From: a virus
Taxonomy: Duplodnaviria > Heunggongvirae > Uroviricota > Caudoviricetes
Virus record (IMG/VR): IMGVR_UViG_2713896897_000015
Span: 1-33,057 of that record
DNA length: 33,057 nucleotides
Strand: one strand, 5' to 3'
In this document: positions 6,685 through 8,196 of the stretch, in pieces
Position numbering within the stretch: position 1 is the stretch's first letter
Layout: the number at the start of each line of letters is the position of its first letter
Program-made: the position numbers and the translations under genes
Notes under the pieces: model-generated
The model's database searches: none
Told to the model about the DNA's origin: nothing
What the model saw: only the letters and a program-made list of their open reading frames with translations

Positions 6685-8196
6685 ATGTTGATGAATCAAC
6701 TAAAATCAATGAATATCAATAAGTTACTTTTGGATGTTGATAACCCTCGTTTCCCGACGTCAGCAGAAAATCAGCGTGATGCTATTGCCAAGATGCTTGA
6801 CTTGCAGTACGACCGCATTTATCGCTTGGCTAAAGATATTGCTTCGAAAGGTTTAGATCCGTCTGAAAACATATTAGTTTATCCTAGTGAAGAGGAATCT
6901 GGCTTTTTCGTCGTTGCTGAAGGTAATCGTCGAGTTACAGCCCTTAAACTTTTACACTCTCCTAGACTTGCACCAACAGAAAAAGCACGGAAAGCTTTTG
7001 AAAAACTTAAGATTACTCAGCTTAAAGATATTAATGTTATAGATAACTGCGTTCTTTTTGACGATGATGAATATGAGCATTGGGTCAATTTAAAGCATAC
7101 TGGTCAAAATGCTGGAGTTGGAAGAGTTGAATGGACTGCAACAGAAAAAGCACGGCATCTGGCTAGGATGGGTAAGCAGTCATTTGGTAATCAAATACTT
7201 ACATTTATAGAGTTCAATACTGACTTATATAAAGAGATAATTGCTAAAAAAAGACTTTTAAAAATCACAAACATCACGCGTCTTTTTGGTGATTTAAAGG
7301 TGAGGGATTATTTTAATTTAAAAAGCATTAATGGAGTTCTATACTCATATCAGCCTTATGAACGTTTTTGTGCACAATTAAAAAATATTTTAGATGTAAT
7401 GATTGAAGAGGATGATAAAGGTAAGGCTTGTTTTACTGTTAATAGGATTCGTAGCCAAGATGACAGGGTTACATTTATTATTGAACAAAAAATAAAACCT
7501 TCAGAATCTCTTTTAGATAAGCCGTGGAGTTTACTGGAGCCTAAATCTCTTCTTACAGAGAAAAAACATGATTCTATTGACAAAAATGATGCATCTGTGA
7601 GTGTAAAGAAAGTAGGTCTTTCAGAAGGTGATGCCTTAAAGAATACAGGTATGGATAAACAGGAAGATGATTATTCTAGACATGTAGGCACAGAAGAGAG
7701 TAAATCTAAAGTTTCGGGTACGGAACAGAATAAAAGCAAGGGAAAAACTCCTCCTAAAGTAGATCGTAATGTGTTGGTGCCATCTTATGTGAAATTTAAT
7801 TTTAGAGGGCATAAGAAATGCTCTAGAATATTTAATGAGCTTAAGTCGCATCTGACATTTGATAATACCCCTAATGCTATCTCAATATTGTTGAGAATAT
7901 TTATAGATCTCTCTGTAAGCACTTTTGTTGAAGAAAACAAGTTACAATTTAAGGAACCGCATAGAACTCCAGGGCTTCATGATAAGGTTAAAATGTGTGC
8001 TAATTTCCTTCGGGAAAATAAAAAGATGACGGGGAGTCAATGTACGGCTGTAATAACTTTCTCGAGCCAAATAACTAAACATGATGGTTCATTGCAGCAG
8101 TATGTACATAACCCACACTTAATTCCCTCAAAAGAGGCTGTCAACACTGAGTGGGATAACTTTGAGTTGTTATTAAGCCTTATTTGGAGTGAGTGA
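6685..8196 (+). CDS. ParB/Srx (ParB N-terminal nuclease-like) domain protein with a long K/S/E-rich linker and an uncharacterised C-terminal domain; cargo gene 1
   Basis: ORF 6622-8196. The ATG at 6685 is preferred (AGAGGA 6 nt upstream) and gives about 503 aa. ParB-N signature motifs are LLLDVDNPRF and VVAEGNRRVTALKLL (arginine patch). The gene is AT-rich, unlike the phage backbone, and occupies the P2 tin/old position. Confidence 0.8.
   Translation: MLMNQLKSMNINKLLLDVDNPRFPTSAENQRDAIAKMLDLQYDRIYRLAKDIASKGLDPSENILVYPSEEESGFFVVAEGNRRVTALKLLHSPRLAPTEKARKAFEKLKITQLKDINVIDNCVLFDDDEYEHWVNLKHTGQNAGVGRVEWTATEKARHLARMGKQSFGNQILTFIEFNTDLYKEIIAKKRLLKITNITRLFGDLKVRDYFNLKSINGVLYSYQPYERFCAQLKNILDVMIEEDDKGKACFTVNRIRSQDDRVTFIIEQKIKPSESLLDKPWSLLEPKSLLTEKKHDSIDKNDASVSVKKVGLSEGDALKNTGMDKQEDDYSRHVGTEESKSKVSGTEQNKSKGKTPPKVDRNVLVPSYVKFNFRGHKKCSRIFNELKSHLTFDNTPNAISILLRIFIDLSVSTFVEENKLQFKEPHRTPGLHDKVKMCANFLRENKKMTGSQCTAVITFSSQITKHDGSLQQYVHNPHLIPSKEAVNTEWDNFELLLSLIWSE

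Follow-up and report, generated by a model that had tools for sequence, protein, structure and literature searches.

We analysed a 33,057-nucleotide stretch of DNA from a Caudoviricetes virus (IMG/VR record IMGVR_UViG_2713896897_000015, positions 1 to 33,057; hereafter the window), focusing on an open reading frame (ORF) on the + strand that ends at position 8196 and on the gene that follows it. These two genes are the two-gene anti-phage system PD-lambda-5, which was isolated from E. coli ECOR7 and validated by experiment (Vassallo 2022, Nat Microbiol; PMC9519451). A previous annotation made from the DNA letters, here called the sequence-only reading, had described the first gene product as a ParB-like protein and possibly a modification-sensing nuclease. 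The gene pair comprises the following features.

6678-6683, + strand: Shine-Dalgarno sequence AGAGGA, read directly, 7 nt from the ATG at 6691 and only 1 nt from that at 6685
6691-8196, + strand: PD-lambda-5A coding sequence, 501 amino acids plus stop (PADLOC PD-Lambda-5_A, phrog_9592, RefSeq)
6691-7065, + strand: predicted ParB/Srx-fold N-terminal domain, residues 1-125, alpha/beta (alignment, AlphaFold, Foldseek)
7066-7554, + strand: conserved helical middle domain, residues 126-288, about 160 residues (AlphaFold, alignments, Foldseek)
7555-7752, + strand: disordered linker rich in K, S, D and E, residues 289-354 (model confidence, composition, conservation)
7753-8193, + strand: predicted HEPN-fold C-terminal domain, residues 355-501, with invariant R359, E383, R402 (7894-7896) and H473 (8107-8109)
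8266-9150, + strand: PD-lambda-5B, D12-class N6-adenine DNA methyltransferase, 294 amino acids (PF02086, E 4e-16; PADLOC PD-Lambda-5_B)

Identity of the gene pair

The product of the first gene matched the PADLOC profile PD-Lambda-5_A with an E-value of 7.7e-168 (557 bits; residues 3-502 on profile positions 1-465 of 466) and phrog_9592 with an E-value of 1e-209. The downstream methylase matched PADLOC PD-Lambda-5_B (E 7.9e-122) and is identical at 291 of 294 positions to RCQ13838.1, the PD-lambda-5B protein of ECOR7. HMMER scans of the A protein against Pfam and NCBIfam returned nothing significant. The published supplementary table describes PD-lambda-5 as "ParB/HEPN, methyltransferase" (RCQ13837.1 and RCQ13838.1, 2461 nt; PMC9519451); in the window the operon spans 2460 nt, and its two genes lie on the same strand with a gap of 69 nt.

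The ECOR7 system was protective against 9 of the 10 phages tested, and protection was stronger against T-even phages, which carry hypermodified cytosines, than against lambda or T7 (PMC9519451). Anti-phage activity is experimental for this near-identical system and predicted for the window allele, which we found in 22 of 5426 complete E. coli genomes; in the 15 of these that were listed, nucleotide identity was 98.9% or higher. Relatives of PD-lambda-5A are encoded in more than 424 species genomes, and a profile of its C-terminal domain alone found 2141 representative clusters; conservation of this protein family is far beyond chance.

Three in-frame ATG codons, at 6622, 6685 and 6691, are available to the ORF that ends at 8196. 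The sequence-only reading had placed the gene at 6685-8196; the ORF is real, and all of the peptide strings quoted from it were found at their coordinates, but the start is probably not the one proposed. The best start is likely the ATG at 6691 (MNQLKS...), which is preferred over 6685 because of its Shine-Dalgarno spacing, because RefSeq uses it in a locus 99.3% identical to this one (WP_001072651.1, 'ParB N-terminal domain-containing protein'), and because homologues and the PADLOC profile begin at MNQ or MNT, which corresponds to this codon.

Domain architecture of PD-lambda-5A

We used an alignment of 41 relatives extending down to 29% identity (A1) and a divergent set of 46 sequences (A3), and an AlphaFold model of the A protein was built on A1 (mean predicted local distance difference test score, pLDDT, 79.6). 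Together these divide the protein into four parts. The sequence-only reading had counted three, and the parts it named, a ParB-like N-terminal domain, a charged linker and a C-terminal domain, are all present; what it missed is the helical domain at residues 126-288.

Within the N-terminal domain, N18 and R20 of an NPR motif, Q28, and E77-G78-N79-R80-R81 (codons at 6919-6933) are invariant in A1, with G78-R81 also invariant in the divergent set. We take NPR and EGNRR to be the nucleotide/phosphate-binding patch of ParB CTPases and Srx. When the model was compared with PDB structures using Foldseek, C-terminally truncated KorB, Noc and ParB were the top matches (probability 0.99-1.0), over alignments of 270-290 columns that cover the ParB N domain and DNA-binding domain. 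On this model-based evidence the assignment of a ParB/Srx fold is sound, as the sequence-only reading had proposed from hallmarks in this part of the protein. In HMMER scans, Pfam ParBc (PF02195) matched neither the window protein nor any of 86 relatives; in the published annotation the HHpred probability for ParBc was 96.4% (PMC9519451).

The middle domain was modelled with pLDDT values mostly of 83-93, dropping to 60-76 over residues 131-170. Its invariant residues are R197, R259 and those of a W131..H136-T-G138-x-N140-x-G142..W148 loop, and its place in the Foldseek alignments suggests that it may correspond to the DNA-binding domain of ParB and may bind DNA. The loop (W...K-H-T-G-x-N-x-G-x-G...W; window positions 7081-7134, residues 131-148) is family-specific, has a pLDDT of 60-70, and has no obvious counterpart in ParB box III.

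The linker behaves as a disordered segment by each measure used. Its pLDDT is below 50 over residues 289-354, hydrophobic residues make up 18% of it and charged residues 39%, compared to 41% and 28% elsewhere in the protein, its column conservation is 0.15 compared to ~0.5 in the folded parts, and its length varies from 12 to 71 amino acids among the 41 relatives. This confirms the disorder previously suspected at nucleotides 7552-7770 (residues 288-360).

The C-terminal domain is predicted to adopt a HEPN fold

Modelled alone from 24 aligned sequences, the C-terminal domain contains six helices (pLDDT 92; predicted template modelling score 0.88) and shows the four-helix up-down arrangement of the HEPN fold. 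Published HHpred support for HEPN was only 35.6% and 8% (PMC9519451); with the fold comparison added, the assignment of a HEPN (RNase-type) fold is solid at the level of modelled structure, so that a weak published label becomes a firm fold assignment. At the sequence level, Pfam scans of 41, 46 and 10 relatives gave only sub-threshold HEPN hits (DUF5677, E 0.004; Csm6 HEPN domain, E 0.063), and searches of PDB sequences with whole-family and C-terminal profiles gave only spurious low-complexity hits (eL24, CENP-C).

The sequence-only reading had seen in this region a possible His-Me finger (HNH/DUF1524) nuclease. This was not borne out, as the confidently modelled domain is all-alpha with no beta-beta-alpha unit, and the reading is refuted because the domain has no beta strands and the fold comparison returned no HNH or His-Me proteins. 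The H-x-x-P...N-x-x-L-L motif on which the suggestion had been based is also not conserved: H476 is found in 19 of the 41 relatives and 9 of the 46 divergent sequences, L493 is mostly replaced by Pro, N490 is only moderately conserved, and the His...Asn...His/Asn pattern of His-Me enzymes is not present.

The residues that are conserved point to a different site. H473 is invariant in all 41 and all 46 sequences, and R359, E383 and R402 are likewise invariant across both alignments; Y471 and N474 are invariant in A1 only, P479 and W488 are invariant in A3, and E/D406 and D489 are near-invariant. H473 ends a short helix (residues 467-473) that precedes the last helix (481-498). In HEPN proteins the catalytic histidine occupies this same place (PMC3710099), so by its position H473 is probably the equivalent residue. 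The auxiliary acidic residue of HEPN proteins lies on helix 2 (PMC3710099); E/D406 is on the long second helix (residues 394-415), one turn after R402. The residues of the window protein at H-5 to H-7, where a canonical Rx4-6H arginine would be expected, are L, S and G. Some HEPN families keep the histidine without this arginine, with other basic residues proposed as substitutes (PMC3710099). From the modelled positions and the conservation, we infer a non-canonical HEPN site formed by H473, R402 and E/D406.

PD-lambda-5A is coupled to a D12-class methylase

The motifs of PD-lambda-5B are intact: EPYAGGAG lies close to the N-terminus, and the catalytic DPPY spans residues 200-203. Cloning of PD-lambda-5 needed an mrr-deleted K-12 strain (PMC9519451), which implies an active methylase whose N6-methyladenine mark is not that of Dam.

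We observed a D12 methylase directly downstream of the A gene in 4 of 4 distant metagenomic loci (29-46% identity), which lie between housekeeping genes, beside Tn7-like genes, and in mobile or defence islands. Across 80 loci from different species, a D12 methylase was adjacent in 77, and the other three loci reach the edge of their contig 2-105 nt after the gene. The methylase is on the same strand in 74 of the 77 (73 immediately downstream or overlapping, one upstream) and convergent in three. It is also the better conserved of the two proteins in 71 of 71 loci, with a median identity of 48% compared to 28% for the A protein.

The convergent methylases lie 3-8 nt from the end of the A gene in two Pseudomonadota and one Thiohalomonadaceae metagenome-assembled genome (MAG) (loci L066, L077 and L086), and the upstream arrangement is that of L078, where the sole D12-like match, on the same strand, is weaker (E 2e-30). 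Outside Proteobacteria, the pair occurs in archaeal MAGs (L058, L068, L081), Bacillota (L017, L020, L024) and Actinomycetota (L078, L082, L087). Archaeal carriers of the ParB/HEPN and D12 methylase pair include Micrarchaeota, Methanobacteriota and Methanoregula.

As a methylase is adjacent in every locus with flanking sequence (77 of 77), a modification-dependent (type IV) enzyme is unlikely, and with it the GmrSD-type enzyme suggested by the sequence-only reading; obligate pairing of this kind is characteristic of systems in which self DNA is protected by modification, and PD-lambda-5A is probably blocked by modification. The broader suggestion of a modification-linked defence effector, as opposed to a partition protein, stands, while that of a GmrSD-type, modification-dependent nuclease does not. 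The gene product is a methylase-coupled defence effector.

The gene pair is cargo in the A/Q hotspot of a P2-like prophage

The PD-lambda-5 pair is cargo in the defence hotspot between genes A and Q of a P2-like prophage. The features that define this setting, together with a candidate promoter, are as follows.

4007-6334, + strand: P2 gpA-type replication endonuclease, left flank of the hotspot
6300-9200, no strand assigned: low-GC cargo island, P2 defence hotspot #1 (composition profile, with the replication endonuclease and portal genes as flanks)
6625-6653, + strand: promoter-like site TTTACG-17-AATAAT, candidate only, a weak consensus match just 5' of the PD-lambda-5A gene
9486-10520, - strand: P2 gpQ-type portal protein, right flank of the hotspot

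The guanine-plus-cytosine (GC) content drops to 32-38% at ~6300-9200, compared to 49-58% in the P2 backbone genes. Hotspot #1 for defence cargo in P2 was described by Vassallo et al. (PMC9519451) and by Rousset et al.; the former also mention a second P2 defence hotspot, in the fun/Z region. Promoter-like sites in the region were not above shuffled sequences (14 compared to 10.8 ± 3.6), nor were the hits of a terminator scan, and as neither count exceeds shuffles, these hits carry no weight.

Directly 3' of gene A, at ~6335-6416, lies a truncated remnant of the P2 orf91/DUF3850 gene (ASCH-like, 'RNA-binding'), which RefSeq annotates as a frameshifted, incomplete pseudogene in the 99.3%-identical locus; the cargo replacement probably has its left boundary at this remnant. 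On the other side, a GC-rich spacer (9150-9486, 50-58% GC) contains two overlapping short ORFs (9183-9338 and 9286-9447) and is probably P2 backbone, not cargo. A strong terminator-like hairpin lies at 9465-9480 on the - strand, just past the portal gene. The window as a whole (1-33057) looks like a P2-like prophage, with replication, portal and terminase genes and a long run of + strand ORFs of at least 120 amino acids at ~12-31 kb that are probably structural genes.

Proposed mechanism and alternatives

We propose that PD-lambda-5B marks host and prophage DNA with N6-methyladenine and that PD-lambda-5A, through its nucleotide-binding N-terminal domain and its helical domain, would tell unmarked incoming DNA from marked self DNA. 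The flexible linker (~65 residues) would tether the HEPN-type effector domain, and nucleotide-dependent self-association of the N-terminal domains on unmethylated DNA would bring two HEPN domains together. A composite active site centred on H473 could then form, in which R402 and E/D406 of helix 2 would replace the missing motif arginine, and RNA cleavage would stop the infection. The self/non-self logic would resemble restriction-modification (R-M), with HEPN as the effector. A dimerisation switch is proposed because ParB N domains self-engage upon nucleotide binding and because the active site of HEPN RNases usually lies where the two subunits of a dimer meet. That T-even phages are blocked more strongly than lambda or T7 fits an effector that need not cut phage DNA at ordinary restriction sites.

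We place the probability of this mechanism as a whole, from self-marking by the methylase to RNA cleavage, at roughly 0.5. Several points weigh against it. HMMER scans of ~87 family members gave no significant Pfam HEPN or ParBc match; the case for DNA binding by the middle domain depends on Foldseek alignments that span several domains and have a high root-mean-square deviation; and the dimerisation switch is drawn purely by analogy with ParB CTPases and HEPN RNases. Only 4 of 41 relatives have the canonical Rx4-6H arginine, so the HEPN domain may lack activity or serve some other function. The literature searched held no biochemical data on either protein and no mechanistic study. In its most specific form, in which a nucleotide-gated ParB-type sensor engages only unmarked DNA and an arginine-less HEPN site is assembled by N-domain dimerisation to restrict by RNA cleavage, the proposal is unlikely on present evidence, although if true it would establish a new kind of mechanism in methylation-gated defence and give the ParB CTPase switch a new role.

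The discoverers of PD-lambda-5 read the system as a compact 'R-M plus Abi' (abortive infection) module, in which the ParB-like domain is a restriction DNase acting on unmethylated DNA and HEPN is a second-line Abi RNase should restriction fail. Nuclease as well as NTPase activity has been reported in the ParB/Srx superfamily (PMC10853773), Anantharaman 2013 counts ParB among the R-M endoDNase domains fused to HEPN, and the linkage to a methylase is obligate. However, DNA cleavage is shown by no data, no constellation of catalytic acidic or metal-binding residues typical of a DNase is evident, the invariant residues being those of the nucleotide/phosphate patch, and protection that is stronger against T-even phages with glucosylated hydroxymethylcytosine than against lambda and T7 is unusual for a simple DNA cutter. 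We regard this model as possible but doubtful; it is the alternative that survives best.

Less probable still is a HEPN fold without catalytic activity that acts as a module for dimerisation or for binding protein or nucleic acid, with the chemistry located elsewhere, for example in depletion or hydrolysis of nucleotides by the ParB/Srx domain. The absence of the canonical arginine from 37 of 41 relatives would be explained in this way, and nucleotide degradation has been proposed for ParB-superfamily proteins of conflict systems (PMC10853773). On the other hand, R359, E383, R402 and H473 are strictly invariant in sequences that are only 24-30% identical overall, and strict invariance of charged and polar residues argues for a catalytic or ligand-binding site rather than a scaffold.

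Two further readings are very improbable. A GmrSD-like type IV enzyme, combining a ParB/DUF262-like NTPase with a C-terminal His-Me finger (HNH/DUF1524) nuclease, draws on the ParB/Srx fold of the N-terminal domain, the high conservation of H473-N474, a layout parallel to GmrSD and weak sub-threshold Pfam GmrSD_N hits in 2 of 46 divergent relatives (E 0.0019), but is effectively refuted by the fold, the motif conservation and the gene context. A ParB-family protein with no defence role, acting in partition or as an IbrB-like prophage transcription regulator, would accord with a 77%-identical relative named 'IbrB-like-binding regulator' in one source, with the Foldseek matches to KorB, Noc and ParB and with a faint NCBIfam RepB hit (E 0.021; 14 bits, where the cut-off is 201), but the gene lies among gpA, the methylase and the portal gene, the protein has neither a ParA-type partner nor a ParB C-terminal dimerisation domain, its relatives lie in unrelated chromosomal and mobile-element contexts but always with a methylase, and a near-identical system blocks phages by experiment (PMC9519451). 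A partition (ParABS) protein was rejected given the HEPN domain at the C-terminus and the lack of a ParA neighbour; parS sites were not searched for.

The residues that we single out for mutation are R80/R81, H136, R359, E383, R402, E/D406 and H473. As the methylase pairing is obligate across bacteria and archaea, the R-M-like logic is directly testable.

Comparison with known systems

The type IV enzymes GmrSD, BrxU and SspE (DUF262 plus DUF1524) have in common with PD-lambda-5A an N-terminal ParB/Srx domain, a C-terminal effector and an anti-phage role, and in this general sense the analogy with GmrSD drawn by the sequence-only reading, in which a nuclease-type effector lies C-terminal to a ParB-like module, holds. 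Their effector is a His-Me finger, whereas that of PD-lambda-5A is an all-alpha, predicted HEPN domain preceded by an extra helical domain and a disordered linker; they are modification-dependent, whereas PD-lambda-5A is always paired with a methylase and is probably modification-blocked. The window locus works like this group but is not a member of it.

Comparison with the CTPase clamps ParB, KorB and Noc shows a common N-domain fold, a box I-like NPR and a box II-like GxxRR patch. In contrast to these clamps, PD-lambda-5A has no ParA partner, parS context or ParB C-terminal dimerisation domain; a box III-like motif is absent, and the protein has instead its own invariant KHTGxNxG loop and, at the C-terminus, the predicted HEPN domain.

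Type II R-M systems and PD-lambda-5 both consist of a stand-alone methylase, with active-site motifs, obligately paired with a second protein, and both are horizontally mobile. In PD-lambda-5 the second protein has none of the usual endonuclease folds (PD-(D/E)xK, HNH, GIY-YIG, PLD) but is predicted to combine ParB/Srx and HEPN folds, and in contrast to type II systems PD-lambda-5 protects well against T-even phages.

Anantharaman et al. 2013 catalogued fusions of ParB to HEPN as well as operons that combine HEPN, ParB and DNA methylase genes (for example Saro_3948; MAE_28990 family). These sets contain the same combination of domains, with a predicted role in R-M-linked defence. The HEPN families described there have a conserved or 'mostly active' Rx4-6H motif, whereas PD-lambda-5A keeps the histidine without the arginine.

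Other P2-like phages have a related protein in the same A/Q hotspot. Phage Wphi encodes gp98 (401 amino acids; NC_005056.1, locus L007, 96-3266), which over its first 150-300 residues resembles the N-terminal part of PD-lambda-5A at 26-30% identity (PADLOC PD-Lambda-5_A, E 3e-24; PDC-M38A, E 9e-25). It is followed by gp96 (369 amino acids, without a match in Pfam or PADLOC) and by a C5 cytosine methylase in convergent orientation, and similar hotspot proteins occur in NC_070904.1 and in phages L-413C and vB_EcoM-12474. Apart from Wphi gp98, the only hint of effector swapping comes from PADLOC sub-profiles that match only residues 1-210 to 1-230 of the A protein; a homologue search with the N-terminal 288 residues for other C-terminal effectors returned the same architecture only. 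The Wphi locus suggests that modules of a ParB-like sensor and a methylase recur with different effectors.

The closest system is PD-lambda-5 of ECOR7 itself, listed by PADLOC and DefenseFinder as PD-Lambda-5, in which the gene set, gene order, spacing and location in P2 hotspot #1 are all the same as in the window, and, judging by methylase identity and the profile match of the A protein, nothing material differs. The finding is thus already known: the window holds one further copy of a catalogued defence system, and nothing in it is categorically new. What the present analysis adds to the published description is a firm HEPN fold, the signature of a non-canonical site, an overlooked middle domain, and a measure of how strict and how widespread the pairing with the methylase is. 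What interest remains lies in the mechanism, as PD-lambda-5 was among the broadest-acting systems of the Vassallo screen.

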